Below the pieces are notes generated by a model. The model did no database searches. It saw nothing but the letters and a program-made list of their open reading frames with translations, and was not told the DNA's origin. Shown here one piece after another: positions 21,926 to 47,626 of a DNA stretch of 64,000 nt; positions within the stretch are counted from its first letter, which is position 1; every line of letters begins with the position of its first letter. A program made the translations under genes and the position numbers. Origin of the DNA: a virus (Duplodnaviria; Caudoviricetes); the IMG/VR virus record IMGVR_UViG_3300046820_001270, positions 270,493 to 334,492 of that record; one strand, written 5' to 3'.

Positions 21926-21955
21926 CCATTTTGTGTTTGTTTATATTTATTGAAT

Positions 21956-22408
21956 ATGGCAGTAACATACGGTATCGATTATCCATTTAGAGACAGTCCT
22001 AAGGGAGATTATTTGAATATGACAGAAATCCCCGAAAAAGAGATTAGAGCTAATCTAATACACCTTATTTTAACAAAGAAAGGTAGTAGGTATTATTTAC
22101 CTGATTTCGGGACCAGAATATATGAGTATATTTTTGATCAAAATGATTTTGTGACATATAATTTAATTGAAGAAGAAATAAGAGAAGGTGTAAAGAAATT
22201 TATACCAAATTTAGAAATAAACAATATATCTATTATGTCAGCGGAAGATGACCCAAATGAAAATAGAAGTATTTCACAAGATGAAGATCAAAGACTTTTT
22301 AGAGTTTCTGAATCGTCCAACAAACCTTACACTGCAGTTGTAAAAATAGAGTACAGTGTAAATAACGGATCATTCTCAACGTCCGATTTTATAATTTTAA
22401 ACATATAA
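21956..22408 (+). CDS. Baseplate wedge subunit, gp25/GPW-like
   Basis: IRANLIHLILTKKGSRYYLPDFGTRIYEYIFD matches gp25-like proteins. ATG at 21956 is preferred over the TTG at 21950. Confidence 0.85.
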   Translation: MAVTYGIDYPFRDSPKGDYLNMTEIPEKEIRANLIHLILTKKGSRYYLPDFGTRIYEYIFDQNDFVTYNLIEEEIREGVKKFIPNLEINNISIMSAEDDPNENRSISQDEDQRLFRVSESSNKPYTAVVKIEYSVNNGSFSTSDFIILNI

Positions 22409-22409
22409 G

Positions 22410-28277: not shown

Positions 28278-30169
28278 TGAAAAAGAAAGAAATATTATTA
28301 CCTACTGAAAGGTATTTTAAGGCGGAAGAACAGGATCTTAATTTAAATATAAAATTAGAGAATGATGAAACTTTATTAAGAGAAGGTGATAAAGATATTG
28401 TTTTAAATTTAGCTGAATTATATAACGAAGAAAGAAACAAAAGTGCTAATTATAAAATATTTGGTAAAATAAAAATGGTATTTAGAAATATGTATTCCGG
28501 ATATACCGATTATACGCCACTATTAAAGAATTTTTATTTAGTAAATGACGGGACATCAGAAAATACCGCCGATAGTACTATTGGATTTGTTCCATATAAC
28601 GAATTTGCATTTCATAGGAATGATGTTAAAAGAGAAGTTTCCACACCTAAATCAGGATCAATAATAGGTATCCCTAATAACGTACCTAGTGTTACAATAC
28701 CATCTGGTAATAGATTTACAGGACATACGTCAACAACAGTAATGGAAGCCCCGTATAAAAATTGGAATCTTTATTTAAGTTATGTTTATACAGGACAAAC
28801 GGATTTCCCAATGAAATATACATTATCAGGGGACACTAATGGTAATAAAACATATTCATTTAACTCTGGAGACGGAATACCATTTAGAGTTACCGATGAC
28901 GGTGGAAATTATTACACTTTAACATCACCAGTGGAACATGGATTTAGTCAAGGTGAGTATATTATATTATCAGGAGGAACTTATACAACATATTCAGGAA
29001 TTACAACAGGTAAGACATTTTATACAATTCCAATAACAAAAGATACTGAAATATATAGAATTTTTTATATTGATAATGTCGGTAACGAAATATATGATTC
29101 AGAAAAATACGTAATTAATATTTTAAAAAGTGAATTTACATCGGGAACAACATTAAGTTCTGTAGTGTTAGGTAGGAGGTGTAAAAACATTAATGATATA
29201 ACAGGAACAACATCCCAATATTATGTACACAAACATAAAACATTATCAACAATCAATGATTATATTTTAGATAAAGTTGGTTTTGAAAATACAATATGGG
29301 AAGATGAAAGAAAAATTTTATTTGAAAATACTTTACAAGAAAATGACATTCTAGTAGAAAGAAATAGACAAGAAACTTTATTGTTTGATTTTAAAAATAA
29401 TTTTACATTATCAGGAATAACAAATAATTTGGGATACACACCAACTGAGGTATATGCTAGTATTATTTTTAAAAATGAAAATGGATTTTTTACTTACCCA
29501 CCAAAAGTAGGTTATAAATTTAATTTTCATAATGATTGGATGGATAATCAATTTAGTGGTTCAACATCAAACGAAACAACAATATCAACAAGAACATTTA
29601 CAGGAAATACTTCAGGATTTACATTTATAGGTGGACAAGTGACTGGTTTAACAAAGGGAACAGTTTTAACCGGTGCATTTGTGGAATATAATAGAGGTGA
29701 AATTAAAGAAAGAATTATTAGTGAAACATATCATAAATTTTCACATAGAAAAACAACAGGAGACGGAAAAAGGTTTTTTGACCATTCCCAAGATCAATCA
29801 AGTTTTTATTCTGGTGCAACAGCATCTAATCCGGTAGGATATTATTATCAACCACATCATAGAATTAAACTAAGAGAATTATCACCTTACATTGAAAGTT
29901 CAAAATTAGATTCAACACAACCACAAACTTTAATTGATTTACCTGAAAATACCATTTTTGACAATGCGGAAAAACTTTGGAAATGGAGAGATCTTTATGA
30001 TCACGGATTTATTGATCAAGAAGGAAATGGAACAAATTTTCCATTTATGAATAATTCACATTATGTTATGAAAAATATTAATTTTTATTTAAGAAATGAA
30101 AATTCATATATAAATAAAAACGATGAGTTAATTGGATTTAATAATTATAGAAATAAAACTAACTGTTAA
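28277..30169 (+). CDS. Structural protein (baseplate or tail), rich in [S/T]GxT
   Basis: 630 aa, coupled by TAATG overlaps at both ends within the baseplate operon. Confidence 0.6.
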   Translation: MKKKEILLPTERYFKAEEQDLNLNIKLENDETLLREGDKDIVLNLAELYNEERNKSANYKIFGKIKMVFRNMYSGYTDYTPLLKNFYLVNDGTSENTADSTIGFVPYNEFAFHRNDVKREVSTPKSGSIIGIPNNVPSVTIPSGNRFTGHTSTTVMEAPYKNWNLYLSYVYTGQTDFPMKYTLSGDTNGNKTYSFNSGDGIPFRVTDDGGNYYTLTSPVEHGFSQGEYIILSGGTYTTYSGITTGKTFYTIPITKDTEIYRIFYIDNVGNEIYDSEKYVINILKSEFTSGTTLSSVVLGRRCKNINDITGTTSQYYVHKHKTLSTINDYILDKVGFENTIWEDERKILFENTLQENDILVERNRQETLLFDFKNNFTLSGITNNLGYTPTEVYASIIFKNENGFFTYPPKVGYKFNFHNDWMDNQFSGSTSNETTISTRTFTGNTSGFTFIGGQVTGLTKGTVLTGAFVEYNRGEIKERIISETYHKFSHRKTTGDGKRFFDHSQDQSSFYSGATASNPVGYYYQPHHRIKLRELSPYIESSKLDSTQPQTLIDLPENTIFDNAEKLWKWRDLYDHGFIDQEGNGTNFPFMNNSHYVMKNINFYLRNENSYINKNDELIGFNNYRNKTNC

Positions 30170-32760
30170 TGGAGATATTAAAAAATAACACTAATTTAAA
30201 TGTTGTTATTAATACTGAACAAAATTTTAGGACTGATTTAGGTTGGCAGGAAAACTTTGCAGATTTTGAAAAGGAAGTTTTAGAAGACATTGTTAATCCG
30301 GCAAAGAATTATGAAACAGTTAGATACATTCACAGACCTTATACAAGTACAACTGAATTATTACAATGTGATATTTGGTTTAGTTTTTATTTTATTAGCG
30401 GATCAACATACGTACAAGATTATTATTCGGACAATGTACAAATAACAACAAGAGAGAATGAACTAATGTTGAGACAATCAACAGAAAGTTTCTTTAGATT
30501 AGAATTTTATAAAACACCCGGTACTGTAACTAATGGAGTACTAACATGCGATCCCCCAACAAGACAAAATAGAAGATTTGTTAATAGTAAAAATCTTTCT
30601 TTACCATTAGGTGAAAAGTTTTTTTATGAACCAGAAAATTCAGGTTATTATATTCATTTACCAATTTTTACAGGATCAAATTATAGGAATAAAGAAAATA
30701 TGTATTTGTTTTGGTTTGATGATGAAAGTGTATTAGAAGATAGTAATTTAAGTGGAACAACAACTTTGGATAGATATATTTTTACAAAAAACGTTACAGG
30801 AAACACTTCATTTTTATTTGTTAACGAATTCAATCAAATAATTCAAGTTTTATTAACGGGAAATACACCAACGATATTATCGGGAACAACAGGTCAAACA
30901 TTTGATATTTCAGGTGTTAATTATTATGTGGAAAAAAGAAGTGACGGATCACCGTACTATCACGGAATGAATACATTCTTTATGACCGCAAAATTCTTTA
31001 ATGGTAAAGATGGTAGTATTTTAGATTTTACTAATTCAGGATTTACTACAGGTCATACTGTAAATGAATCTTCGGATATGTACTATCAAGTTGATTTTGA
31101 TAATTATGAAAGAACATATCAAATATACAAATATAGTGGAGGTACAAAAGGAAGTAGAGTTGGAACTAGTAATACAAGTTTAACAAATACAATTGAATTT
31201 TACGAAAAGGGAGGTGCAATTAAAATGACACCATTACCAACCGCAACAACACCTATAGGAACAACACCCACCCCAACACCTACCCCAACACCTACACCGG
31301 CGGCCGTTCAATATTGGTATCATTTAAAAAGATGTGACGCAAATGTGGTTGAATATTCTATTAGATATAATCTTAATACTTTTACAATTGGACAAATAGT
31401 ATATGGTCACGACACACATTATTACTATACTGTAACAGGCAGTACTGCAACAACAAGCACAAATCCAGGTTCGTCAAATATATTAATTGACACTACAACA
31501 TTTACTAGATGTGAAGATACACCATATTATGTACAGACAAGATCTAAAATAACATTGGCGGATATACCATTTTATTCTGGTTTAACATCAACAGATCTTA
31601 TAAATAAAGTTTGTAACAAAACAATTGGCCAAATTACTGAAGGTACTGCAACTTCTTTAGATGTATGGGTAGATGATGATCCATATGTATTTGGTACAAC
31701 ATATACGGCATATTTATCAAGTACAGGAAATACAATATATGTGGGAGGCAACAGACATTATGGAGTAATTGAAAATAATATTATAACTTCAATTTTATTT
31801 ATTTCTAGTAATAATTCAGAAAATAATTTATATGCGTGGAAAGCGTGTGGAGAACCATTTAATGAAGATGACTGTTTTGTTTATGTAAATAACACTGCGT
31901 ATACTTCTTTAGTAGATTATAAAGATTGTTTTACACAAACATGGAATTATTCATTTCCTGTTCCACCATATACTGGAGTTTGTGCGGCGTACGGAACAGT
32001 CACGGTTATAAGTGGTGCGGATTTAATGAAGACAGAAAATAGTTGTGGACCAACACCTACACCAACACCATCTAGTACTCCAACACCAACACCTACACCA
32101 ACACCATCTAGTACTTCCACACCGACACCAACACCTACACCAACAAGTGACGGATCTACATCAACTCCAACACCTACCGCAACACCCACACCAACACCTA
32201 GCCCAACATCTAATTGTGTAACATCTGTACAATTTGAGGTTGATTTGGGAGGTCAAGTTAGATATGTGGATTGTTGTGGTAATACACTATATCCCAATTT
32301 CGGTATTGGACCACAAGTAATAAACGATTGTATTCAAATTGATTCATTATTTAGTACAAGTGCGAGTATTACGGACGTATCTTATGGATCAACGCCTTGT
32401 AGTTGTGTGTCAACCCCAACCTCAACACCAACTAGTACACCAACAGTAACATCATTACCATATACGGTAACAGGAACGTATAATACCCAAGGAACTGTAA
32501 ATGGGGTTGCAAATGGAACTTTAACCGTAAATAGTGGAACTGTTACGGTTACATTTGAAGTGTTTTCAGGAGTATGTTCAGGATGTTCAAATACTGGTTA
32601 TTTAACAGAAGGTGCGAGTTTAACAATAACTTCGACAAATACACAATTTCCAAAAATAGAATCACAATCATTTAGTAAAGGAGTTGGGGTTCATGATTTT
32701 ACAATAACAAGTAGTCCTGATAGCGACAGTCAAAAATATGCTAGATTAACTTTCTCATAA
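30169..32760 (+). CDS. Structural protein with C-terminal Pro-Thr linkers and Cys-rich modules (fibre-like)
   Basis: 863 aa. The N-terminal region is non-repetitive, followed by (TP)n tracts and Cys modules, one of which is duplicated at 46505-46745. Confidence 0.65.
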   Translation: MEILKNNTNLNVVINTEQNFRTDLGWQENFADFEKEVLEDIVNPAKNYETVRYIHRPYTSTTELLQCDIWFSFYFISGSTYVQDYYSDNVQITTRENELMLRQSTESFFRLEFYKTPGTVTNGVLTCDPPTRQNRRFVNSKNLSLPLGEKFFYEPENSGYYIHLPIFTGSNYRNKENMYLFWFDDESVLEDSNLSGTTTLDRYIFTKNVTGNTSFLFVNEFNQIIQVLLTGNTPTILSGTTGQTFDISGVNYYVEKRSDGSPYYHGMNTFFMTAKFFNGKDGSILDFTNSGFTTGHTVNESSDMYYQVDFDNYERTYQIYKYSGGTKGSRVGTSNTSLTNTIEFYEKGGAIKMTPLPTATTPIGTTPTPTPTPTPTPAAVQYWYHLKRCDANVVEYSIRYNLNTFTIGQIVYGHDTHYYYTVTGSTATTSTNPGSSNILIDTTTFTRCEDTPYYVQTRSKITLADIPFYSGLTSTDLINKVCNKTIGQITEGTATSLDVWVDDDPYVFGTTYTAYLSSTGNTIYVGGNRHYGVIENNIITSILFISSNNSENNLYAWKACGEPFNEDDCFVYVNNTAYTSLVDYKDCFTQTWNYSFPVPPYTGVCAAYGTVTVISGADLMKTENSCGPTPTPTPSSTPTPTPTPTPSSTSTPTPTPTPTSDGSTSTPTPTATPTPTPSPTSNCVTSVQFEVDLGGQVRYVDCCGNTLYPNFGIGPQVINDCIQIDSLFSTSASITDVSYGSTPCSCVSTPTSTPTSTPTVTSLPYTVTGTYNTQGTVNGVANGTLTVNSGTVTVTFEVFSGVCSGCSNTGYLTEGASLTITSTNTQFPKIESQSFSKGVGVHDFTITSSPDSDSQKYARLTFS
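32206..32443 (+). repeat. Dispersed direct repeat, copy 1 (about 240 bp); copy 2 is at 46505-46745
   Basis: Long identical blocks, e.g. aatttcggtattggaccacaagtaataaacgattgtattcaaa and tatcttatggatcaacgccttgtagttgtgtgtcaaccccaacctcaacaccaactagtacaccaa. Confidence 0.95.
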
Positions 32761-32763
32761 TAT

Positions 32764-34146
32764 ATGAAAAGAAACGAATATAAAATATTAAAAAGAGAAA
32801 TACCTGATGTGAATTTACATTCACTTACAGGACAATATTGGTTTGAATATAGTAATCAATGGTTATCTTGGGTTACAGGATCACTTCGTATTCCTGGTAT
32901 GACACCTGAAACAGGTAGTTTAGTACACGATATTAGATGGTATTCAGGTATAACATATAATTTAGATGATACGTTATTTTATAGTGGTAAAACATATATT
33001 TCATTAAAAGATAGTAATTTAAATCATATTCCATCTGACGTAAGTAGTTCATATTGGAATGAAATTGAACAAAGAGCAATAAACAATACACAAGGAAAAT
33101 ATTATAAATGGAATGGTAATTCGTGGGTTCTATATACAGGTCCTTTAGGATATGATTACGTTATACCAATTGCTCTTGAGGCAGACGCCGATGAAATGGG
33201 AGTGTTTTCTTCTTTTGATGGTTTTATTGAACAGGTGGAACAAATTGTAAATTTTTCTTATAAACAAAGTGAATCTACAATTACAGTATATGGTACAATG
33301 AATCCTGATAAATTAAGAAAAATAGTAGATCAGAGTTTTACAATTAATTGGGGAGACGGAACTACAGGTTCTTTAGGTGTTAATAGTGGAGTTCTTTATA
33401 GTAATTTTCCATCTACAACACATACATATACCACAAGTGGACAACATTTAATAACAATAACGTTAGACTCCCCTTGGTCAAAACAAAAAACACAAAAAAT
33501 AGTTACCACACCCCAGAATATTACGGTATCAAATCCAATGGGAACATTTACAGGATTTACAATCCCAAGTGACGGATCTAATTTAAATTATTTAAATGAT
33601 TATGAATACGCCACAGGTTATACTGCAACACCGTCAAAACCATTTAAATTCATGGCCATCGGTCAAAGTAAAATTGGTGATTTTAAAAGATATGGTGAAA
33701 CTGTACCCCGCGGAGTTGATTCAGGTTCATTAACTGACGGAACAAAGTATACAGGTTATACCGTAAATGGGTTATATTATATGGACAGAGAAGACGGTTT
33801 CACACAAATAACGGGAAGTGTATCGAATTATAGATTCGGACCAACAAGTGGTTATACATATGAAATTAGTGGAGATACTATTAATACCATACCGTATTTA
33901 ACTACAAGTGGAAATACAACTGAATTTGAAACCGAATATGATGTGATAAACTACATCACTCAACATAGATTAACAAGAAACGAACATTTCATTGGGTTTA
34001 TCGATGATCCAACCGTTTATTCTGACGTTTTTGTGGAGAGAGGCCGACAGGGAGTGATGGAAGTTAACTTAAGATTGGGGGAAATTGACAATATGAGTGA
34101 ATTAGATATCTACGGAAATGGATATTTTAAGGTAAGAAAACAATAA
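32764..34146 (+). CDS. Structural protein with CBM5/12-like and PKD-like domains
   Basis: YNLDDTLFYSGKTYISLKDSNLNHIPSDVSSSYW is CBM5/12-like. FTINWGDG...THTYTTSGQHLITITL is PKD-like. Confidence 0.6.
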   Translation: MKRNEYKILKREIPDVNLHSLTGQYWFEYSNQWLSWVTGSLRIPGMTPETGSLVHDIRWYSGITYNLDDTLFYSGKTYISLKDSNLNHIPSDVSSSYWNEIEQRAINNTQGKYYKWNGNSWVLYTGPLGYDYVIPIALEADADEMGVFSSFDGFIEQVEQIVNFSYKQSESTITVYGTMNPDKLRKIVDQSFTINWGDGTTGSLGVNSGVLYSNFPSTTHTYTTSGQHLITITLDSPWSKQKTQKIVTTPQNITVSNPMGTFTGFTIPSDGSNLNYLNDYEYATGYTATPSKPFKFMAIGQSKIGDFKRYGETVPRGVDSGSLTDGTKYTGYTVNGLYYMDREDGFTQITGSVSNYRFGPTSGYTYEISGDTINTIPYLTTSGNTTEFETEYDVINYITQHRLTRNEHFIGFIDDPTVYSDVFVERGRQGVMEVNLRLGEIDNMSELDIYGNGYFKVRKQ

Positions 34147-34170
34147 AAATTATATTTATAATAAAAGTTT

Positions 34171-35091
34171 ATGGCAGTAGGATCATACGGAATAGTTAGA
34201 CCAGCAGATGTATCACCAGATGACGTAGAAATTCTATATCATTATGCGGCCGATAGAGTCGCAACAACGGGAGTTACACTAAAAAAATTAACATCAAATC
34301 AGGTTTTAACACCAATTTTACATACGGGAACAACAACTACAGATACGGCAGCAGTTGGAACTGAGATATTGGGAGGTTTATATAATTTACAATTAAACGC
34401 TACTGATTTTAGTGAATTAGGTATATATACACTTTATATAAGACCAAAACAATTAAGAACAACCGTTATGGATTGTGGTGTTTTAGCATCGTTACCATCA
34501 GTTAGAGGAGTTGTTGTGGATTTATCAAACGTTCCATCTGCCGATAGAAATAAGTTTACACCACAAGGTTTAGTTGGTTATAGAATTGAATATATTAATC
34601 CAAATGATAATAAGAAATTACCTAACTTTTATAAGATAGTAACGTCTTCTTTCTTTTGTACTCCTGTAACGGCAAACTTAAATACAACAACACAAAAATC
34701 TGTAAGATACCAATATAGTGAAGGAGCTACAAACTTTATGTTTTTAACGGTAACACCGTCTTCAGCACCTTCAAACAAACCAAATACGGTTCCATTTATT
34801 GGTAGTCCAGGTCAAAAGATCATTTTATCAAACACATATGTTAATCCAACAACAATTGAGATTGATATGGTTGAACATGATGCATCGACACTTGCAAATG
34901 CTCTTTACGGTAATCAAACTAAGGCGGTTGCACCGGGTATATACACAATCTACGATAAAGAAAATAACATATACAGACAATATAATTTATTCGAGATCAA
35001 AGACGACTTTAATGAAACTCTTTATGAGGTTAGAGAAAAGCGTACTGATATTGATGAAACTTTAAACTTTGACACAATTACTAATATCTAA
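34171..35091 (+). CDS. Structural protein (baseplate region)
   Basis: 306 aa, preceded by TATTTATA and coupled (TAATG) to the 2274-aa wedge-like gene. Confidence 0.6.
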
Positions 35092-38000
35092 TGGCAAAAT
35101 ATAAAGTTCCGAGTCAAGCTGCGAGTGGTGCTGATACATTCAGTGATAATCTAGTTGGTAATCAGATTACCAATGGTACCAGTCAATTGACTAATACTAA
35201 CTTTGCATTAGATAGTGAAGTAACATATAGGGACACCAAAAATTTTAAAACAAATCCATTTTCAGATTTTTTAACTTTAGATGATTTAAAAAAAGAAACT
35301 GACACATTATCTACAGATGAGATTGCAAAAAGAAAAAAAGAAATTAAGTTTAAAGGTTCTAAAAGCGATGCAGGTAAATCTTTATTTGGTTCATTAAAAA
35401 ATAGATTAGGAATCTCTACAAAAAATATTATTACAAATTTCCCCGCGGGAGTTTTAATCGATTCAAAAAGTTATACTAGTGTAAGTGGATTTACGGCAAC
35501 AAACATAGAATATAATAAGTTAAACAACACAACACAATTTGATGTTGAATATGGTATGTTATATAATCCATTTGGTGTTATAATGATAAAACCAAATAGT
35601 AAAGATGTAATTAAGTCCACCAACCCAATAAGAGATTATTATAGTTCATTTAAAAAATATGTAATATCACTAAGTAATGTATCATATGATATTATATCAT
35701 ATACACAACCAAATAGTGATAATATAATTAAATTAAGAGTAAGTGGTAAACCGTTTACCGAATCTACATATTCATTAGATATTTTAATTAAACCAAACGA
35801 TGGAGTTGTTGAAGAATTCTATAATGGATTAGATGATTTAGAAGAATCATTATTAAATAGAGAAACCTCACCAATCTATACTGCGAGTTTTAAAGTACCG
35901 AGAGATAGTTTTGATAAAAGTAAAACAGAATTAATATCGGTTAATTATACTTGGCCAACTTCGGATAAAGATAATTGGAATATTAAAATTGCGGGATTGG
36001 AATACGATACGTATTTAACTAATTTAAGTAATATTGCAGATGAGATTGATGATTATAAGTCTAATTTATTTGTAAGATTTTTAACATCACCCCAATTATT
36101 TGAATTCGATAGCCCTGATCAAAAGGCGGAAGCCATATTTCAATTATATGGTCAATCATTTGATAAGGTAAAAAAATATATTGATAACATCGCTCACATG
36201 AGAAATGTAAGTTACGATGGAATTAATAACATACCCGATGTATTGTTAAAGAATTTAGCCAACACATTGGGTCTTGACACGGTTAATTTAATTGATGAAA
36301 AAGGATTAGACGAATTATTATATACAAAAACATCACAACAATATTCTGGTTTAACTTCAGGTAAGTCATTAATTGATGCTGAATTTGAATTCTATAGAAG
36401 ATTATTAGTAAACTTAGCTCACATCTATAAATCAAAAGGTACTAGACAATCATTAGAATTTTTCTTAAGATTCTTAGGTGCACCTGACCCAATGATTAAA
36501 ATAAATCAGTATGTTTATAAGGTTACCTCATTACCAAAAACAACTAATTTATATAATTCTATTTATAATGCCGTTGCCGGTATAATAACAATGAAAACTG
36601 GTGTGTTCTTACCAACAGGAGGAACTATAGATGGAGTTGTTTATCCATATTACTCATATTATACGGGATCAACAACAGGTAGTACGTTATTAACTATGGA
36701 TAATTATCCAGTTGATTTAACAACTTTATTACCAAAAGGAATTACAGGATCAACAGATTATTTTTTTCAAAAAGGTTCAGGTTGGTATGATAATACCACT
36801 AATCACAAATCACCAATGGTGATTGATACTGATTTATCTAGTGGTACTACAATAGACGGTAATTTTGTATTAACAGGTAGAACAAAAACTGCGGTAACTA
36901 AAAATAGTGTTCGCACATACGGAGAAGATTATTTTGATGTATATAGAACATTACCTGGTTTAGATTTAGGATTTGGTTTAGAAAGTGTAATAGATAATAA
37001 TCAAACAGAATTAGTAAGTGATACATCGGGTTTAATATTAAACCGTAAAAATATTCAAGTTTACTTATCATCAGCTCAGGCTATTGATTATGACATATAT
37101 CGTAAATCAAGAGATTTAGAATTAACATTTGGTACTAATAGTTTATTACCACAAACAGGTGTAACATTTGCGGAATATGTAAACAAAGTTTTACATGATC
37201 AAGTTAAGAATTCACACACGATAAAATATAAGAAAAATTATATTACCTTAGAAGACATTTATCGTGACTACATTACACATACCGATTTTACACCATACAC
37301 ATTTCCTGATGTGAATACATTCATTGAAAAAATGAGTCCGTATTGGACTAGCGTCGTAGATCAAATTATCCCATCGACAACATTATGGACAGGTGGTAAT
37401 CTTATTGAAAATAATATTTTTGCTAGACCAAAGTATCAATATAAATTTGGGTGTCAACCAAAAGAATTTACTGAAGAACTATATCCAAATTTTGAATTGG
37501 CAATTGAAGAGGATTTAGAAACACTATTAGGTGAAGAAAATAATTTAAGAGGATTAATTGATTTAACGGGTATGACTTACTATCCCGTTATTGAAATTGA
37601 TGGAACAACATACGGAGGTAATACTTACCAAGGAGGTATTCATAAAATTGTTATTAGTGGAAATACAAACACATCTAATACTGCAAAATTATATAACACA
37701 TGGACTTTAACAGGATGTACTTCAAACGTTAGTTTCCCATTAATATGTGACTATAAAGATTATGTAAAACCTGACATTGTTAAAATTAAAGAGTTATGGA
37801 AAAGTTCATTAACAAACTTAATTAATTCAATTAATACAGGAACAACAATATACTCTGCGGGTTATGAAAATTATACACCATATTTAAACGCAACGAGTGG
37901 TACCACTCGATCAACACAAACAAGACCAAAATTAAATTATACATATTTTACGGATATTGACGGAATTGAAAAAATTAAATTTACCTCATTAAAATACGGA

Positions 38001-41000
38001 GCACACGATTGTTCAGTTAATGAATATTTTTCATATAGATTCTATTCAATACCAAACGTTAAATCAACCTCATATTTAGATATTGATTTTTCAGTTAAGT
38101 GTGATGTATTCGACGAGAACACAGAATTATGTGAATTAGTGGGAGATGTTATTGTAAAAATAACAGGGGCAACAAACATAGGAGTACAAAAAAATGGAAT
38201 AACAGGATATCCTGTATTTGTTCATTATAATTGTGAAACATTACAACAAAATTTAAATAACCCAAGTATTGTTATTAAACCGACAAACGAAGATGTTTGT
38301 ACTTTAATTATTACAGGTGTCACTGAAGTTGATGATATTGATTTAATTTTTACGGATGCGGCAAATAGTGAAATGAAAGTTAAGGTACAAGGATTACAAG
38401 TCAAAGCAATACATGATCCTTTAGTAAGAAGTCATTTCCAAGAGTTTAGTGTGTCATCATATAAAGATGTTGAAACAACATCAGTCTTAATAGACACTCA
38501 ATATGGTGTAACCTTTTGTGATAACTACACAGGATGGACAATCACACCAAAAATACAAACAAGAAGTTCATTTAACTATGGATTAAAAGATAATACAACA
38601 GTATTAGTGTATAGTGGTGCAACAAAAATTAAAAAATTAGTAAGTAATTTATCTGTTGGAGATGAATTAGTTTGTTTAACATACAACTCACCCGAATCAT
38701 TCTCATATCAAACATATTTGGACGGTAAGAATAATAATGATTACTCATTTACATATACTGAAGTTTCAAAAAAGATTACAGATATCGACTGTTTAGGTTC
38801 TGTTAAAAAAAGTGTCATTGTTGCAAGACCATCTAATGGAAATTCAAATGGAACTAATGACGAAACTTTTGAAGTATTACCAACTACAAGATTAAGAATA
38901 TTCACAAATAAAGATGTGAATGAAAATACTTTAGAAGTTTCCGAACTTAAAAGTCATCAATTTGTTAATAGATTACCTGAACATATTCAAGTAAAATCAA
39001 ATGAATATATTGAACCATGTTGTGATCATAAACCAGATCCATATTTAACAGGTGATTATATAATTAATCAAGACGGTGAGTTATTGGAAGTTATTAGTGT
39101 TGATTTAAATTATTGTGATTTAAGTTTATATAGAAATATTAATGTAAGCGGAACAACACCATCAGATTTAATTTTATTTAACGGTACAAATAGTACACAA
39201 ATTTTATTACAACATAAGTATCAACAATTTATTGAAGTTGATTTTGAACAACAACAATATTATACGGATTCTGAAAACTGTCCAACAACACCGACAATTG
39301 CAAGTTTAGAAAGAAATTATGGTGTAGTTTGTGATAGTACACCAATAGTCCCTTGTGGAACAGTTTATACAATACCAACTCCATTACCATCACCAACACC
39401 TACTTCAACAGTTACACCAACCGCAACACCTACTCCTACAACGAGCCCAACACCTACACCTACACCAACTAGTACACCAACTCCAACTGGAACACCAACT
39501 CCTACACCGACACCTACACCGACAGGTTCTAGTACACCAACTCCTACACCAACAGGAACCCCAACTCCAACACCTAGTTCAACTCCAATTTGTGGATTTG
39601 GTGTGGACGTGAATATTATTACAGCAACACCTACACCAACACCTAGTTCAACTCCAATTTGTGGATTTGATGTAGATATTAATGTAATTACCGCAACACC
39701 AACACCTACACCATCAGGAACACCTAGTTGTTTATTTGATGTTGATGTGAACATATTAACAGCAACCCCTACCCCTACACCTAGCCCAACAACTGATTGT
39801 AGTTTTGGTGTTGATGTGAACATATTAACAGCAACCCCTACCCCTACACCTAGCCCAACTCCAACACCAACTAGTACACTTAATTGTGTATTTGATGTTG
39901 ATACAATTATAATAACAGCAACCCCAACACCAACACCTAGTCCAACTAGTACACCTATAGTGCCAACGGCAACACCTAATTGTGCGTTCGATGTTGATGT
40001 GAACATAATAACCGCCACACCAACTCCTACACCAACACCAACTAGTACACCTATAATACCAACACCAACTAGTACACTTATAGTACCAACAGCAACACCT
40101 AATTGTGCGTTCGATGTCGAAGTAGATATTATTTCTGCAACACCGATACCTACTAGCACCTCAATAGTACCAACCGCAACCCCAACTAGTACACCAATAG
40201 TACCAACTGCAACACCAACATCAACTAGTACTTCAACACCTACCCCGACACCAACTCCTACACCAACTAGTACATCTATACCACCAACCGCAACACCTAA
40301 CTGTGTGTTCGATGTTGATGTGAACATTGTTACCGCAACTCCAACTCCAACTAGTACACCTATACCACCTACCCCAACATCAACACCGACACCAACACCG
40401 ACACCAACACCAACACCAACACCAACTAGTACGCCAACCCCAACACCGACTAGTACACCTGTACCACCAACACCAACATCAACACCTGTACCACCAACAC
40501 CAACATCAACACCAACATTCCCTGATTGTGTAACGAGAGTTACCTTTGATGTCGATAGTCCTGGTGATGTTAGTTACGTAGATTGTTGTGGAGTTGGAAA
40601 AGTTGTTACTTTTGGTGGAACAGGTTTGGAAGTAATAATTGATTGTATACAATACGGAACATTAATAGGAGCGGGAGCACTTATATCATTTGTTGTTTAT
40701 AGTAATACATCTTGTAGTTGCCCACCAACTCCAACACCAACCCCAACTCCTACACCAACACCAACTAGTACACCTATACCACCAACTAGTACACCAACTA
40801 GTACGCCGGTATTATATTCACATAGTTTAGGTTTTGTACAAGGAGCATTTGAAGATCGTTATGGTCCGGCGGCATGTTCAGATTACGTATTTAGTCCAAC
40901 AACATATTATTCTAATTGTTCGACGTTGTCAAATGGTTGTTATTTATATTCAAATAATTCAGGATCACCAGTAAGTCAATCAGGTTGGTTCTCCAACGGT

Positions 41001-41915
41001 AGTTCCTATTGGGTATTAGATGGACCGGGTTTACCAATAAGAGCACAAGCACCTTGTCCAACAACGACCCCAACTAGTACACCTATACCACCTACCCCAA
41101 CATCAACACCGGTACCACCAACATCAACACCAACACCTATACCACCGACTAGTACTCCAATACCACCAACGCCTGTACCAGCAACTTCATTTACGGCATA
41201 TATTAGTGTAGATGATGGATCAGGATCAGGAGCCAACGCATGTAATGGGGGAAATTTCAGTTCATATTTTGCATATCAATTTAATGGATTTTATGGAACA
41301 ATGTGTGATGCTAATAGTTATATTGAAGGTGCTATTATTCAAGCAGAAATTGATCCAAACGGGTATTTTTGGTTAAGTGAAGGATCAGGACAATCAAGAT
41401 ACTTTAGAAAATACGGTTCAACAAATAGAGCATATCCACAAGAGGGTTGTGTAAACTGTCCAACACCGGTACCACCAACATCAACACCAGTACCACCAAC
41501 ATCGACACCTGTACCACCAACATCAACACCGGTACCTGATCCAACATCAACACCGGTACCTGATCCAACATCAACACCGGTACCTGATCCAACATCAACA
41601 CCGGTACCAGCACCAACACCAACACCTGGAACATCATATACATATCGATTAGGACCATCATACACATTGGCAAGCCAAGCATGTACAAATTTCGGTATGG
41701 ATTTGTATACTGAAGTCTTCGCAGCAACGAATGAAATAACTGAGGTACAACAATTCTTCACAGATTCTGGTCTAACAGCATTATATTTAGGAGAGAATGA
41801 AACTCACGCATTTCAATTAATGGATGGAGCTTTTCCAATTGGTATCTCATATTCAGGAAGAATTTCATACACAGGACAGGTATCGGATAGAACATTCTGT
41901 GCGGAACAACCTTAA
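35091..41915 (+). CDS. Baseplate wedge-like protein (gp7/P2 gpI-like N-terminus) fused to a degenerate Hint domain and a long PT-rich Cys-module fibre
   Basis: [22 protein letters not shown] is the KGT motif of gpI/gp7-like wedges. Hint-like region at 38577-39185. The last ~850 aa are PT repeats with Cys modules. Confidence 0.65.
39591..40337 (+). repeat. Eight copies of C-x-F-[DG]-V-[DE]-x-x-I-x-[TS]-A-T-P separated by PT tracts
   Basis: [112 protein letters not shown]. Confidence 0.9.
41517..41588 (+). repeat. Three exact 24-bp tandem repeats (PTSTPVPD)
   Basis: ccaacatcaacaccggtacctgat x3, flanked by further degenerate copies. Confidence 0.9.
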
Positions 41916-41964
41916 TAAAAAATAAAACAAAATAAACAGATATTTATAAAAAGAAACAAATAAT

Positions 41965-42528
41965 ATGACAATAACATTTACATTAACATCTGGATCATCA
42001 ACAACATCTGCAGGTCCATTTAACATTTCAGGAACAACAAACGGAGGTGCATTAAATGGTGTATCAATAGCGACAGGAGTAACCAAAGCACAATTATTAG
42101 CGGGACATATAGTAACAAATGTTACACCTGAAAACATAACAGGTGGAACAATTGCAAGTACAGGAATTGCTTGTCCTTCATCAACAACAAATTGGTACGT
42201 TACACCACCACCAACACCAACAGCAACTGCTGGTGTAGTAACATCATATTCATATCAATTAGGACCATCACACACAAATGCAACTTTAGCTTGTAGTGGT
42301 ATTAATGGTGGTCAGGGAGAGATTGCAGATTTCTTAACCGAAGTATATGCTGCGACAGATCAACCAGGTGATGTGACACAATTCTTTACCGATGCTGGTT
42401 TAACAAGTGGTTACGGTGGAGAGAGTGAAATTCACGGATATTTCAGAACTGGAGGTCTTCAAGATTATACAGGACGAGTTTCACCAAGTGGTTTTGTAAC
42501 AGAAAGAAATCCTTGTATTGCTCCATAA
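41965..42528 (+). CDS. Small fibre or decoration-like protein: an Ig-like N-terminus plus a Cys module paralogous to the C-terminus of 35091..41915
   Basis: SYSYQLGPSHT...AC...TEVYAATD...QFFTDAGLT vs [11 protein letters not shown]...AC...TEVFAATN...QFFTDSGLT. Preceded by TATTTATA and followed by a terminator. Confidence 0.65.
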   Translation: MTITFTLTSGSSTTSAGPFNISGTTNGGALNGVSIATGVTKAQLLAGHIVTNVTPENITGGTIASTGIACPSSTTNWYVTPPPTPTATAGVVTSYSYQLGPSHTNATLACSGINGGQGEIADFLTEVYAATDQPGDVTQFFTDAGLTSGYGGESEIHGYFRTGGLQDYTGRVSPSGFVTERNPCIAP

Positions 42529-42552
42529 AATTAAAAAATACATAACAATATT

Positions 42553-42580
42553 AAAACCCCTTTATTATGAGGGGTTTTTT
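42553..42580 (+). terminator. Rho-independent terminator
   Basis: aaaacccct-ttattatg-aggggtttt followed by further Ts. Confidence 0.85.
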
Positions 42581-42613
42581 ATTTAAATTCCATATAATAC
42601 TATTTATAGAGAT

Positions 42614-44812
42614 ATGGGTTTAAATATTAGATTACATAACATAAATTTAAAGAATAACTTTAAATTATCATATAGAATTGGTAATACCTCAGGGGATGTT
42701 AATACAATAAACTCAGGTTATACCAATTACACTATTGGTGCAACCTTGAGTGGAAATACAGTCTACCCCTCAAGTGATGTGAGAGATTACGAAACAAACC
42801 CAATTATTTTTACTGGTGCAACATTCAATACACAATATTGGTTTAAATTTTTAGATCAAACAACAGGTTTATATACAATTGAAAATATTAACACACACGA
42901 AAGTAAGTATTATGAGTGTTATGATAAGATAGATTTTTATGTTACCGTAACAGGAGATATTTGTGATACACCTTTAAATGGTGATGTATTTAACCCAACA
43001 ATTACATTATATGATTATTTAAATGATACCGGTTATTACGGTAACCATTCATCGATGACGGGATCGACAGGTTCAGTTTATAACGTATATACAGGAAATA
43101 CATCAGATATTAATGGAACTTCAACAGGATTAATTAAATCGGGAGCAACAACAAATCAAAGTAATGGAATTATACATTCATTTAATTATACGGTAAATTA
43201 CCCACCAACATTACCAATGCAACCATTATATGTTTTTGTTGAACATATGGACGGAAGTGTATGGAATGGTAATAACACAAACCCAAAAAAACAAGGAGGT
43301 TTTGAAGTGAAAAGAGTAAGAATGGAAAATATATTTGATTATGTTAGTACTAATGAAACTCAAACACCATTACCAACTAGTACTCTAATGGCAACACCAA
43401 CTAGCACACCAATATCACCAACCGCAACACCAACTAGTACTCCTATTATATCAACTAGTACACCAACACCTACACCAACTAGTACCCCTATAACACCAAC
43501 TAGTACACCAATTATACCAACTAGCACACCTATAACACCAACTAGTACTCCTATAATACCTACTAGTACACCTATAACACCAACTAGTACACCTGTTTCA
43601 ACAACTAAATTTATTGTTAAAAAATGTGCAGGTAGCGGTGGAGATGGTGTAACAAGTTATAAAGTCCAAATTGCACCAAATGCAACACTAAATAAATCTT
43701 ATACATTATATGGTGGAGTGGGAGTACCTGCAGATATGGATGGTTATAATTGTTGGTATGTTGAAAGTACTGTAACTGATACCACATCACCTGATTATAC
43801 TTTAAATTATCATGCGGAATATAACGATTGTGGAAGTTGTAGTTCAGTTTCATTACTAGTTTATTCGGGTAATTCATTACCAAACGTATGTGCATCAACA
43901 ACCGAAATAACAGTTTATTATAGAGGCACATTAGGTGTCGATACGATTTTATATACTACATCAAATCTTTCAGATGAAGTGGAAACTCCAGGTTATTATA
44001 AATCGGTAAATAATGGAGATATTTACCACGTAGGTGTTGCTGGTCAATATCCATATATACCATCACCAGGAGATGGTTGGATTACTGACATTCAACTTTG
44101 TCCAACACCAACTCCAACACCTATTCCATCTTATACATTTAATTTATATGTAAGTGAAACAAGTGGCGCAGTTGCTTGTGCTGGAGGTGACACACCCGCA
44201 GGTTCTTATCATCAATTTGTAATAACAGGTAATACAACTAATTTCTGTACATCAACATCATTTACTTGTGATTTTATAACATCATATGATCTTTATCAAT
44301 TTTGGGTTAGTGATGGAACTAATTCAAGAAGTTTAACAAGAAATGGTGGTCAAGGTATTGAAACAGCATCACCTGATGGTGCTTGTTCTGTATGTGGATC
44401 AACTCCAACTCCTACACCGACTAGTACACCTACTCCAACCCCAACAGCAACACCTTCATTACCGGCCGGAGTTTTAGGTTTTGGATCTTCAGATAGTAAT
44501 TACCAACAATGTGACGGACTTAATAACTATGAGTATAATAGAACATACTATGTTGATTTTACAAGTGCAAGAAGTATGGGTGGATATGTTGTTGTTTATT
44601 TAAATGATAATTCAAACATACAATTACCATTTAATCAAAGTGCCACCTCTGCATCTTTAACCGTTTCATGTGGATGTGGGTCAGACTGTGCAAGTATAGA
44701 ATATGTAATGAATGTAATATATATCACACCAACCCAAACACCAGAACCATTATTACCTACATCTACACCAACTGAAGGAGGTGGAGGAGAGGTTCCACTT
44801 GAACCAACATAA
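42614..44812 (+). CDS. Fibre-like protein with PT linkers and several Cys modules
   Basis: 732 aa containing PTSTPI(I/T) repeats at ~43430-43590 and four Cys-containing modules. Confidence 0.65.
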   Translation: MGLNIRLHNINLKNNFKLSYRIGNTSGDVNTINSGYTNYTIGATLSGNTVYPSSDVRDYETNPIIFTGATFNTQYWFKFLDQTTGLYTIENINTHESKYYECYDKIDFYVTVTGDICDTPLNGDVFNPTITLYDYLNDTGYYGNHSSMTGSTGSVYNVYTGNTSDINGTSTGLIKSGATTNQSNGIIHSFNYTVNYPPTLPMQPLYVFVEHMDGSVWNGNNTNPKKQGGFEVKRVRMENIFDYVSTNETQTPLPTSTLMATPTSTPISPTATPTSTPIISTSTPTPTPTSTPITPTSTPIIPTSTPITPTSTPIIPTSTPITPTSTPVSTTKFIVKKCAGSGGDGVTSYKVQIAPNATLNKSYTLYGGVGVPADMDGYNCWYVESTVTDTTSPDYTLNYHAEYNDCGSCSSVSLLVYSGNSLPNVCASTTEITVYYRGTLGVDTILYTTSNLSDEVETPGYYKSVNNGDIYHVGVAGQYPYIPSPGDGWITDIQLCPTPTPTPIPSYTFNLYVSETSGAVACAGGDTPAGSYHQFVITGNTTNFCTSTSFTCDFITSYDLYQFWVSDGTNSRSLTRNGGQGIETASPDGACSVCGSTPTPTPTSTPTPTPTATPSLPAGVLGFGSSDSNYQQCDGLNNYEYNRTYYVDFTSARSMGGYVVVYLNDNSNIQLPFNQSATSASLTVSCGCGSDCASIEYVMNVIYITPTQTPEPLLPTSTPTEGGGGEVPLEPT

Positions 44813-44828
44813 AAATATTAAATAAAAA

Positions 44829-46100
44829 ATGAGTAAAGGAATAAAAATAGATTTTGGTAATGGAGGTTTCACTTATGATGTTTACACATCATTAAGTAGA
44901 ACGTCTTGGAGTGATATACCATATATTTCTGGATTTACGGGTCAAACTTTAACAATTAATACTGATTTATTAGGTTATACGGGTATTACGGATACTGTTT
45001 TATATGTAAAAACAACTTGTCCTCATTGTAAACCACAAATAGTAAAAGTAAAATTAGAACCGGAACCAATATCATTAACAGGATCTACTGTAAATGGTAC
45101 GTGTGAAAATTGTGGTGATATCGATGAACCAGAATGTAACGGTGCAATTACTTTATATGTTTGTGGTGGAGTTAGACCATTTACATATCAATGGTCAGGA
45201 GCGACTAAAAGTGGTAAAGTTATCACATCAACAACAAAAGATTTAGGATATTTGGAGGAAGGTAATTATAATGTAATAGTTTCCGATAGTTATGGAATAA
45301 CAGGAACAACAGGTTTTACTATTGATGTAGCACCTTGTAATCCACCGATAAATTTAACAGCGGTAGCACCTATCATTTCAACCCCAACACCAACACCTAC
45401 ACCTAGTCCAACACCTACACCTACCAATACATCAACCCCTACCCCAACACCTAGTCCAACACCAACACCTACACCTACCGCCACAGATAATGACGGAAGT
45501 ATTTTATTAGTCTCTAGTTCATCTAGATCTTCGGCTTGTAATGAATATGAAACAGGTACAAAAGTTAAATATTGGGTTATGGATGGTGGAGGATTACAAA
45601 CGGGTAATGTCTTGTGTCAAAATAATAACTGTTCAACTAAAGCACTAAATGGTTTTTATTCTGACGGTACAAATTATTATGAAGTAGGATATGGAGGAAC
45701 AGGTGAAATAATTAGTCAGGGACTATGTAGTGCTCTTGGTAATACAACAATCGGTTTAAGTAGTTCCGCAACATGTAGAACCGTTGGTTCTTGTAACGAT
45801 AACGCTACTTGTGGTGTTAGAATACCAATATTATTTAATAATGGAAGACCAAGTGCAACACAAATATTTGTCACAGTAACATCATCACAAAGTGGTGCAA
45901 GTGTTTCTATATATAACGATTTCGGAGATAATGCTACTGGTTGTTTTCTTATTTATACTGAAAATAGTGGTTCTGGAACTATAGCGTTCACTTTAACACT
46001 TAAAACTTCCCCTGGAAATGAATATATATGTGATAGTGGTCTAATAAATTTATCACATAATAATGGGGGACAACCTTGGAGTATGTTAAATGACTGTTAA
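44829..46100 (+). CDS. Fibre-like protein with a SprB-like repeat, a PT linker and Cys modules
   Basis: CNGAITLYVCGGVRPFTYQWSG...TTKDLGYLEEGNYNVIVSDSYG matches the Bacteroidota SprB repeat consensus. Confidence 0.7.
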   Translation: MSKGIKIDFGNGGFTYDVYTSLSRTSWSDIPYISGFTGQTLTINTDLLGYTGITDTVLYVKTTCPHCKPQIVKVKLEPEPISLTGSTVNGTCENCGDIDEPECNGAITLYVCGGVRPFTYQWSGATKSGKVITSTTKDLGYLEEGNYNVIVSDSYGITGTTGFTIDVAPCNPPINLTAVAPIISTPTPTPTPSPTPTPTNTSTPTPTPSPTPTPTPTATDNDGSILLVSSSSRSSACNEYETGTKVKYWVMDGGGLQTGNVLCQNNNCSTKALNGFYSDGTNYYEVGYGGTGEIISQGLCSALGNTTIGLSSSATCRTVGSCNDNATCGVRIPILFNNGRPSATQIFVTVTSSQSGASVSIYNDFGDNATGCFLIYTENSGSGTIAFTLTLKTSPGNEYICDSGLINLSHNNGGQPWSMLNDC

Positions 46101-46123
46101 AAATAGTAAAATAAAAATATAAA

Positions 46124-47626
46124 ATGGCACAAACATTAACAATATCGTGGGGAGCACCTAATAATGATAATTCACCACAACAAGTGACGGGTTATACTTT
46201 AAGTTATAAAAAGACAAGTGAAAATGTTTACACAAAAATAACGGGAATTTTAAGTGGAACCACAAGTTATGTTTTAGGTGGATTAGATGGAGGAACAAAC
46301 TATGATATTTGTGTACAATCAAATTGTACCCCAAGTTGTGTTAGTGAAAAAGTGTGCACTACAAAAACAACAAACGCAGACCCAACCCCAACACCAACTA
46401 GTACTTCCACACCGACACCAACACCTACACCAACCCCTACAGCCACTAGTACACCAACTCCAACTCCAACCCCAACCGCAACACAAACACCAACTCCAAC
46501 TCCAACATCTAATTGTGTAACATCTGTACAATTTGAGGTAGTTAGTGGAGGTGATGTTAGGTATATAGATTGTTGTGGTAATACACTATATCCTCCCAAT
46601 TTCGGTATTGGACCACAAGTAATAAACGATTGTATTCAAAATGGTTCATTATTCGCAGTTGGTGCAAGTATTACGGATATATCTTATGGATCAACGCCTT
46701 GTAGTTGTGTGTCAACCCCAACCTCAACACCAACTAGTACACCAATACCACCAACCGCAACACCATTTGCGACAATATTAAATAACGTTTATGTTAGTGA
46801 TCCATTAACTAGTACTCCAACCGAACAAGATTTAACTTTAGCAATAGAAGACGCTTGTGAGGGTAATAGTAATATTAATACATTCTTAGGTGGTCCTGCA
46901 ACGATGACAGTATACGGTTCCAGTATTTGTGATGCGTCCGCTATGTTTGATCCAAGTACAATTATTCAGCAAGATGTGACATCAGGAGGAATTATTATTT
47001 TAAGACAATTAATTAATAATTTTGGTGGAAGTGGAGGAAATAAATTATGGTACAGAAAATTCCAAAGATCTGTAGGTGTAAATGTTAATATGTATACACC
47101 TATTGGTGGTTGTTTAGAGTGTGGAGTACCAACCCCAACAGCAACCGTACCGCCACAAATTACAGTTAATATTTACGGAAGACAAAATATTCCATATAAT
47201 GCCGTATCAAATAATTTACAATTAGTTTACCAAACATATAGTTCAACTTTAGGCCCACTTAATCATACATCATCAGGTGTACAAAAATCATTAATAGAAG
47301 GAGAAACCTTCTTAGTAAGTCCAAATGTAGATGCTGGCGGTTATTTGAATTTAGGTTTGTATTTAAGGGAGACAAATGGTGCATGTGATTATCTTGAGGT
47401 TAATGTAAATGTATTTGTCGCCGGTGCTTATTTAACAAGTAGATTTACTGACTCTACAGGTTCATTATTAAGCGATTCTGGATGTGGTTTAGAAGGATCA
47501 TTGAATGGAGTAGGTATACCGGTAAGTCAAGCAATAGATGTATATATTAGCCCAACAGCGACAGGTGTGTGTTTTGGATCTGCTCTTACTCCACCAGGGT
47601 TAGAGTGTTTAACAACCAATGAATAA
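46124..47626 (+). CDS. Fibre-like protein with an N-terminal fibronectin type III domain, PT linkers and Cys modules
   Basis: LTISWGAP...VTGYTLSYKK...YVLGGLDGGTNYDICVQSNC is a clear FN3 pattern. Confidence 0.7.
   Translation: MAQTLTISWGAPNNDNSPQQVTGYTLSYKKTSENVYTKITGILSGTTSYVLGGLDGGTNYDICVQSNCTPSCVSEKVCTTKTTNADPTPTPTSTSTPTPTPTPTPTATSTPTPTPTPTATQTPTPTPTSNCVTSVQFEVVSGGDVRYIDCCGNTLYPPNFGIGPQVINDCIQNGSLFAVGASITDISYGSTPCSCVSTPTSTPTSTPIPPTATPFATILNNVYVSDPLTSTPTEQDLTLAIEDACEGNSNINTFLGGPATMTVYGSSICDASAMFDPSTIIQQDVTSGGIIILRQLINNFGGSGGNKLWYRKFQRSVGVNVNMYTPIGGCLECGVPTPTATVPPQITVNIYGRQNIPYNAVSNNLQLVYQTYSSTLGPLNHTSSGVQKSLIEGETFLVSPNVDAGGYLNLGLYLRETNGACDYLEVNVNVFVAGAYLTSRFTDSTGSLLSDSGCGLEGSLNGVGIPVSQAIDVYISPTATGVCFGSALTPPGLECLTTNE
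46505..46745 (+). repeat. Dispersed direct repeat, copy 2
   Basis: Near-identical to 32206-32443, with a 3-bp insertion (YPPNF vs YPNF) and short divergent patches. Confidence 0.95.

Follow-up and report, generated by a model that had tools for sequence, protein, structure and literature searches.

How do six neighbouring genes of one phage come to carry the same small domains in different combinations, and what part does the DNA between those domains play? The question is raised by a 64,000-nt stretch (hereafter, the window) of the caudoviricete record IMGVR_UViG_3300046820_001270 (positions 270,493 to 334,492), in which six genes between positions 30169 and 47626 encode cysteine (Cys)-bracketed modules strung on tracts rich in proline and threonine (PT tracts). 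A preliminary description of this DNA, made from its letters alone, took the block for a mix-and-match library of receptor-binding cassettes. The six genes share families of modules that are reused between genes and stand in variable order in related phages, and those cross-overs that can be resolved lie in PT-coding DNA. We therefore regard the block as probably, though by no means certainly, a hypervariable host-recognition block of peripheral fibres in a T4-like freshwater jumbo phage, which evolves by exchange of cassettes at their linkers. Rather than a programmed system, this looks like the domain swapping familiar from tail fibres, in a form that is unusual and has not been described.

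Module families in the six genes

To define modules, the six proteins were cut at Pro/Thr/Ser tracts, of which there are 28 (2001 nt in total) across the six + strand open reading frames (ORFs). Domains were annotated with linkers masked and with the profile aMPDI left out, as it absorbed A-like sequence. The genes, named here by their start positions, are arranged as follows:

30169-32760, + strand: g30169 (863 aa), with conserved N-terminal part 30169-31257, PT tract 31258-31302 and module G 31303-32046
32047-32757, + strand: C-terminal half of g30169, with PT tract 32047-32214, module A 32215-32406, PT tract 32407-32451 and tip Z 32452-32757
35091-41915, + strand: g35091 (2274 aa), with N-terminal part 35091-38018, non-PT segment 38028-39374 and PT stalk 39375-40523
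40524-41912, + strand: modules of g35091, namely A 40524-40721, C 40812-41060, D 41175-41459 and B 41637-41912
41965-42528, + strand: g41965 (187 aa), with N-terminal part 41965-42198, PT tract 42199-42228 and module B 42229-42525
42614-44812, + strand: g42614 (732 aa), with N-terminal part 42614-43393, PT tract 43394-43603, module X 43604-43849 and module C 43850-44104
44132-44809, + strand: C-terminal half of g42614, with module D 44132-44395, module Y 44459-44728, and a PT stretch and acidic Gly-rich tail 44729-44809
44829-46100, + strand: g44829 (423 aa), with N-terminal part 44829-45374, PT tract 45375-45485, divergent C-type module 45498-45728 and tip H 45729-46097
46124-47626, + strand: g46124 (500 aa), with fibronectin type III (FN3) N-terminal part 46124-46378, PT tract 46379-46513, module A 46514-46708 and PT tract 46709-46756
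46757-47623, + strand: C-terminal half of g46124, with divergent D module (D3) 46757-47128 and tip E 47156-47623

Types A, B and D recur where the preliminary description had placed them, as significant paralogues by BLASTP, Smith-Waterman z, bridging through the related locus L009 and hhalign. Specifically, the three copies of type A (32215-32406, 40524-40721 and 46514-46708) match one another with BLASTP E-values of 1e-25 to 3e-09 and Smith-Waterman z of 16-51 against shuffles, and the two copies of type B (41637-41912 and 42229-42525) with an E-value of 1e-16 and z of 31. For the two clear copies of type D (41175-41459 and 44132-44395) the pairwise z is 5.8, and both match the D module of L009 (E = 1e-17 and 2e-07); the looser copy suspected near 46850 (46757-47128, in g46124) is found by the D profile with a probability of 91% (hhalign; E = 9e-07). 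Type C, the weakest of the four, is supported for two of the three copies that had been proposed. The copy near 43880 (43850-44104, in g42614) belongs to a well-populated family and that near 45530 (45498-45728, in g44829) matches a 12-seed C profile (E = 6e-05), whereas the copy near 40850 (40812-41060, in g35091) is tied to the C module of the L009 orthologue by a pairwise E-value of 0.017 and by a shared position before D~B. Profiles of B, C and D show no detectable relation to each other (hhalign probability <2%), and the module types are therefore distinct. A MAFFT alignment of D onto B was dropped, as hhalign sees no relation between these two types.

Every module has Cys residues near both ends, and their number is six in A, two in B, two or four in C and four or five in D, being even in all but the one D copy with five. 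This pattern would fit closure of the modules by disulfides.

Module A has 28 homologues, in proteins 275-875 aa long; a search of 1.84 billion proteins found it in only 58 representative clusters. Its mean column identity is 77% and its position usually internal, and it is therefore unlikely to be a variable specificity element. Module A is thus a highly conserved internal part of these proteins and no variable tip. Between the two close copies (32215-32406 and 46514-46708) pN/pS, the ratio of nonsynonymous to synonymous differences, is 0.64. Most of their differences fall in three runs of neighbouring codons (aa 10-14, 42-43 and 47-49), the first of which is, in the g30169 copy, identical to that of the metagenomic protein P0015; the pattern suggests patchwise conversion or loop selection within the module.

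Module order and junctions in relatives

Using the N-terminal 1428 aa of g35091, we found 29 related viral loci, to which ~100 metagenomic proteins were added. All 29 loci have a conserved backbone that consists of genes for proteins of 1326, 630, 460 and 306 aa, the g35091-type N-terminus (35091-38018 in the window) and a gene for a 729-aa protein. Behind the conserved N-terminal parts, the loci differ in length, gene number and module content. Comparison of module order in relatives had been set beforehand as a test, and neither the order nor the number of modules is conserved across the 29 loci; as had been proposed, modules are reused in different combinations, both between genes and between related phages.

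The shared modules are attached to a minimum of six to nine N-terminal parts and precede many different C-terminal tips, which are far more variable than the internal modules. For module A alone, at least six unrelated N-terminal parts were counted and no fewer than eight different tips, and on a tree of 35 A modules the N-terminal part must change 18 times; the complete relative of 335.6 kb lacks module A. The N-terminal part of g30169 is kept in four loci (L009, L013, L015 and L029) and two proteins (P0026 and P0111) with different C-terminal modules in each, and in L029 it is followed by the D3~E unit of g46124. Module C of g42614 is found within the g35091 homologues of L009 and L015, and module Y with the acidic Gly-rich tail forms the C-terminal end of g42614 in the window but that of the g35091 homologue in L015. 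Several N-terminal parts carry the X~C~D unit. Modules X and C, which are joined without a PT tract, occur together in five of five cases, whereas C and D, which are joined by one, are also found apart. There are 18 homologues of g41965, and in one protein (P0046) module D replaces the g41965-type N-terminal part. In L031 and L032, too, the slot just before the 729-aa gene is taken by an A-bearing gene.

Two features of these proteins are reported in their own right. The g42614 tail (44729-44809) consists of a PT stretch followed by Glu, four Gly and an acidic Pro-Leu-Glu-Pro-like end; tails of this type also end the g35091 homologues of L015 and L024, with a variant in P0103. Within the PT stalk of g35091 (39591-40338; aa 1501-1749) there are eight 12-aa units, each with one Cys, alternating hydrophobic residues and acidic residues, and L009, L013, L015 and L024 have 4 to ~10 copies of such single-Cys 12-aa units with other sequences. 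At this length the units could not fold by themselves, and they may pair between chains.

Where do the junctions fall? Within the window, the segment 32108-32443 (+ strand) is ~90% identical in DNA to 46407-46745, with both edges of similarity inside PT-coding DNA, and reads as a recent copy of module A together with parts of both linkers. The genes of P0002 and P0005 begin with unrelated N-terminal parts but then share 812 nt (A~D~tip) at 91% identity, and their cross-over lies inside PT DNA, ~32 nt upstream of the first Cys codon of A. In the genes of P0014 and P0015, the common part is confined to A and portions of both linkers. A comparison of g46124 with L031 shows 82% identity in A and E and a replacement of D, with edges at the linkers. 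In these four comparisons, which have enough DNA identity, every resolved junction is in PT-coding DNA. Break points also gather near linkers: in a descriptive census of BLAST alignment ends, 52% of the 673 clusters are no more than 5 aa from a linker, where 23% would be expected. The proposal that PT tracts are junction sites is supported in these comparisons.

One junction is of another kind. The non-PT segment of g35091 (aa 980-1428; 38028-39374; ~450 aa) is missing in the closest relatives (L009, L013 and L015; 70-72% identity) and present in more distant ones (48-54% identity). Therefore, g35091 is a mosaic at ~aa 976, where there is no PT tract.

Two side observations come from contigs of public sequencing runs. 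In four freshwater runs, the summed contig depth in PT bins (31803-32403, 40217-40817 and 45025-45625) is 10-18x baseline, which implies that the same PT-coding DNA is common to many other lake genomes. Contigs of runs X3 and X5, from other lakes, alternate between segments identical to the window (e.g. 32766-34110, 36313-37066 and 40484-41057) and segments that are ~5% divergent (e.g. 42581-43111 and 46549-47459). This alternation hints at recent recombination among co-occurring strains, although the contigs may be from different strains.

Genomic setting and explanations of the exchange

The window is AT-rich (~31% GC), nearly all of its genes are on the + strand, and the metagenome runs in which its DNA occurs are from freshwater and lakes. 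T4-type replication and recombination genes recognised by Pfam in the window encode gp32, a UvsX-like RecA, a DnaB-like helicase and a 5'-3' exonuclease. The six-gene block is bordered by the following genes:

21950-22408, + strand: gp25-like baseplate wedge gene (PF04965, 37.9 bits against a cut-off of 27.2)
22410-24242, + strand: gp6/Baseplate_J-like wedge gene (Baseplate_J, 18.3 bits, under the cut-off of 21.1)
47652-49841, + strand: conserved gene for the 729-aa protein, which ends the variable block in the window and in the relatives

The gp25-like and gp6-like genes (21950-24242) are directly 5' of the block, and the gp6-like protein matches an annotated baseplate wedge protein of Flavobacterium phages (tblastn; 3e-51) and an uncultured 484-kb phage (tblastn). 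From the position and architecture of the genes, the predicted role of the modules is most likely binding to the host surface.

Under the reading that we favour, the conserved N-terminal part would presumably dock each protein on the baseplate or on another fibre, and would be followed by an extended Pro/Thr linker and one to four small globular modules, whose end cysteines probably form a disulfide after release of the virion from the cell. The general recombination machinery of the phage would copy a module, along with part of the linkers on either side, from one paralogous gene to another and between co-infecting relatives, and the survivors would be those joined in linker DNA. PT tracts could ease such exchange through the 11-21-nt matches available between any two tracts, their 6-nt period would keep homologous cross-overs in frame, and an altered linker length would do little harm.

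Several points weigh against this reading. Usage of Thr and Pro codons in the linkers equals that in the rest of the six genes and in other window genes, and the longest exact matches between tracts of different genes (11-21 nt) are the same as in 60 synonymous resamplings. In the break-point census, ends of high-scoring segment pairs (HSPs) are imprecise and related proteins repeat the same events, and ~30% of the clusters are separated from the nearest linker by >20 aa. The sequences used for comparison all come from metagenome assemblies. The conserved neighbours of the block have no Pfam, PHROG or PDB sequence match, and we infer presence in the virion and receptor binding of the six proteins from gene position only.

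The first two of these points bear on an explanation that we find possible but rather doubtful, in which selection is the only filter: recombination would occur anywhere, and only products joined between folded domains would survive. The PT linkers would then have a function at the protein level, as extended spacers, in protease resistance or possibly as sites of O-glycosylation. The tracts do consist of DNA of the ACACCA/ACTCCA type that had been described, as Thr is encoded mostly by ACA (59%) and ACT (24%) and Pro by CCA (63%) and CCT (30%); nevertheless, with codon usage and exact matches as predicted, nothing shows PT DNA to be shaped for recombination. The sole tract pair above expectation has a 37-nt match that belongs to the recent duplication of A. 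The linkers on either side of A are poly-Thr or Thr-Ser with different DNA in other lineages (31/41 upstream and 31/41 downstream), so the constant feature is a flexible Thr/Pro-rich spacer and not a particular DNA, and the tie between module and linker is at the protein level. Junctions without PT, such as that at ~aa 976 of g35091, also fit selection as the only filter. An effect on rate is still compatible with these data, as in-frame matches of 11-21 nt exist between all gene pairs. Tandem periods in the tracts are all multiples of 3 and most are multiples of 6, with the result that homologous cross-overs stay in frame. Linker lengths vary among close orthologues, which makes the tracts unstable as DNA, and X~C travels together where the PT-joined C and D separate, although X~C may be a single fold. 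Both readings thus agree with the data, namely that PT tracts promote cross-overs in frame and that only recombinants joined at linkers survive selection. Because of the 6-nt periodicity, the variable linker length and the contrast between inseparable X~C and separable C and D, we lean towards some rate effect, in which PT DNA would raise recombination and not merely tolerate cross-overs. The claim that PT microhomology drives the shuffling is upheld as far as shuffling and linker junctions go; a causal role is not supported, given the expected codon usage and matches and the off-linker break points.

A second alternative, which we consider unlikely, is that the modules are adhesive decoration (carbohydrate- or particle-binding beads, like Hoc and Ig-like domains or carbohydrate-binding modules [CBMs], that hold the virion near cells or polymers) or structural spacers. 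The FN3 and Hoc-like matches would suit such a role: Pfam and PHROG find in the six genes just FN3 (residues 3-66 of g46124; PF00041, 31 bits against a cut-off of 25), a weak Hoc-like match (PHROG 2973, E = 0.002) in the N-terminal part of g44829, which has an immunoglobulin (Ig)-like stretch at ~aa 110-157, and PHROG 15511, to which no function is assigned. Strong conservation of A across very different proteins is unlike a fast-evolving receptor tip, and PT linkers that join small binding modules are typical of bacterial glycanases. Models from AlphaFold2, run on small alignments, point in part the same way. Module A of g46124 is predicted to be a small all-beta domain, with a predicted local distance difference test (pLDDT) score of 78-91, and C~D of g42614 to form two domains (mean pLDDT 86); models of D3 and E (pLDDT <50) were too poor for fold search. 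Among solved structures, A resembles generic small beta-sandwiches only (best Z 4.0) and C~D has no convincing match in the PDB (best Z 5.2, for D), with Foldseek E-values above 0.28 for both models. CBM20/41 appear in the fold search at Z 4.0-4.5, against a poorly modelled part, and Pfam places none of modules A-D in a CBM family. Fold matches in AFDB and BFVD are uncharacterised phage proteins only, and a feature search of the ESM Atlas returned only viral clusters without names. Modules A, C and D thus match no known family or fold. Against decoration stands the location of the genes, which fill the space from the gp25/gp6-like wedge genes to a conserved late gene; this slot is hypervariable among relatives, as is usual for host-range genes. 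The much greater variation of C-terminal tips than of internal modules also speaks against it.

A fold like that of module C (model of g42614 aa 410-500) is also attached C-terminally to some ClpP-like proteins, from uncultured phages and from Bacteroidota, and occurs in protein S0A289 of Cellulophaga phage phi17:1; the ClpP of the window (60407-61084) is without this extension.

Neither gp7-gp12 nor gp34-gp38 homology was recognised in the six genes by Pfam, PHROG and PDB sequence searches, and megablast of 30-48 kb against 50,697 phage records gave zero matches. No glycosyltransferase or prolyl hydroxylase is among the window ORFs scanned. Neither the complete relative nor the control genomes gave a match for an Erv1/ALR sulfhydryl oxidase, so that this negative carries no weight. 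Long ORFs on the - strand (39365-40327 and 41339-41761) are not genes but low-complexity by-products opposite PT tracts. The ORF at 49881 is RuvC-like by eye only and has no Pfam match. Its counterpart in the related contig L035, a 202-aa gene, closes the fibre block and is directly followed on its 3' side by a UDP-glucose/GDP-mannose dehydrogenase gene (9119-9943); the window has no dehydrogenase gene at that place.

Could the exchange be a dedicated, high-frequency system, in which PT adaptors make new fibre combinations within populations on ecological time scales? We think this very unlikely. In its favour, the pair of A copies within the window is more similar (90% in nt) than A is to the same-slot copy (82%) of L031, a relative with ~80% backbone identity, and contigs from other samples are mosaics of identical and ~5%-divergent segments. 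No dedicated enzyme was found, however: no reverse transcriptase domain and no site-specific recombinase or invertase domain is present in the ORFs scanned, searches for a template/variable repeat pair or an invertible segment found none, and there are no strong inverted repeats, only weak ones (72-82% complementary). The two close A copies do not differ at adenines in particular, and the PT DNA is not homogenised. No junctions within a population are evident in the contigs, which are short-read and stop in PT tracts, both in the source sample and in others, and the near-identical A copies are unbridged in the pieces listed. All public-run contigs on 30-48 kb are of this short-read kind; their listed joints have 21-41 nt on the shorter side, and joints with <30 nt on one side are unreliable. 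The idea of a diversification system that needs neither a reverse transcriptase nor an invertase is therefore supported in that neither was found, but 'system' overstates an exchange that takes place on an evolutionary time scale.

Finally, it is highly improbable that assemblers joined unrelated genes across repetitive PT tracts: although independent short-read contigs of the source sample end in those tracts and bridge neither A copy, cross-gene tract matches (11-37 nt) are shorter than the k-mers of k141 contigs, P0002 is on four contigs from different samples, g41965, g42614, g44829 and g46124 are each on two contigs, all reading frames are open, and one Logan contig covers 41898-46427 with two PT regions.

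Known systems and significance

One of the closest parallels is found in T-even phages, whose long-tail-fibre locus (gp37/gp38) was reportedly the subject of studies by Tetart in 1996 and 1998. There, as here, interchangeable host-range segments are split by conserved short motifs in a T4-like background, and neither a reverse transcriptase nor an invertase is needed. Mosaicism of T-even tail fibres with exchange at conserved motifs is classical; the motifs are the 'His boxes' of gp37 and, in the gp38 adhesin, glycine-rich motifs (GRMs) that flank hypervariable segments (PMC3157838). In gp38, however, the GRMs form one folded core with loop segments, whereas here unstructured Pro/Thr linkers lie between autonomous Cys-closed domains, and the same modules are spread over six genes that have no sequence similarity to gp37 or gp38. 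In the six translations, hypervariable segments do not alternate with glycine-rich motifs in the manner of gp38.

Other receptor-binding proteins (RBPs) likewise attach through a conserved N-terminal part and exchange their C-terminal parts laterally. Depolymerase RBPs of Klebsiella phages are anchor-plus-swappable-tip proteins, and the branched tail-spike complex of Ackermannviridae is said to combine conserved N-terminal attachment parts with exchanged C-terminal parts. Prophage side tail fibres with collagen-like regions likewise have a conserved N-terminal attachment part and a swappable tip (PMC3368898). Such RBPs form trimeric fibres, beta-helical or coiled, whose tips are enzymes or lectins; here, 60-120-aa Cys-bracketed beads are strung on PT linkers, up to four per protein.

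In their linkers, the proteins resemble bacterial glycanases such as CenA and Cex of Cellulomonas fimi, in which Pro/Thr linkers join carbohydrate-binding modules. Both kinds of protein have (PT)n linkers, genes that exchange domains, and small binding modules with disulfides, the last as predicted for the phage proteins. The glycanases are secreted, and are oxidised and glycosylated outside the cytoplasm, whereas the phage proteins are made in the cytoplasm and have no CBM match and no catalytic domain. Diversity-generating retroelements (DGRs; e.g. that acting on Mtd of Bordetella phage BPP-1) and the invertases Gin of Mu and Cin of P1 resemble the present case in varying phage host-recognition proteins, but these are programmed, with a dedicated enzyme and defined repeats, neither of which was found here.

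Literature searches found no description of Pro/Thr linkers in phage tail fibres, which is not proof of absence. What is new is the use of Pro/Thr linkers with undescribed Cys-closed modules that form one pool across six genes and a clade. A bolder version, which we hold to be doubtful, is that PT tracts are in-frame recombination adaptors which every peripheral-fibre gene has throughout a clade of freshwater jumbo phages. If that were true, co-infecting phages and paralogues within one genome could continually reassort a common pool of undescribed disulfide-closed binding domains, which would amount to a population-level combinatorial library of host range with no need for a dedicated enzyme.

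Mucin-like linkers and disulfide domains on a protein made in the cytoplasm raise the timing of disulfide formation and the modification of the linkers as questions. The block is also a natural test case of whether low-complexity linker DNA raises the rate of productive shuffling or selection mimics such an effect. The host range of uncultured giant phages is hard to infer from sequence, and the block can be read as a grammar of host range: a fixed N-terminal part, a Pro/Thr string and interchangeable Cys-closed beads. Together with a catalogue of the module families, this grammar could be used to track the exchange of host range among freshwater phages of Bacteroidota-like hosts.

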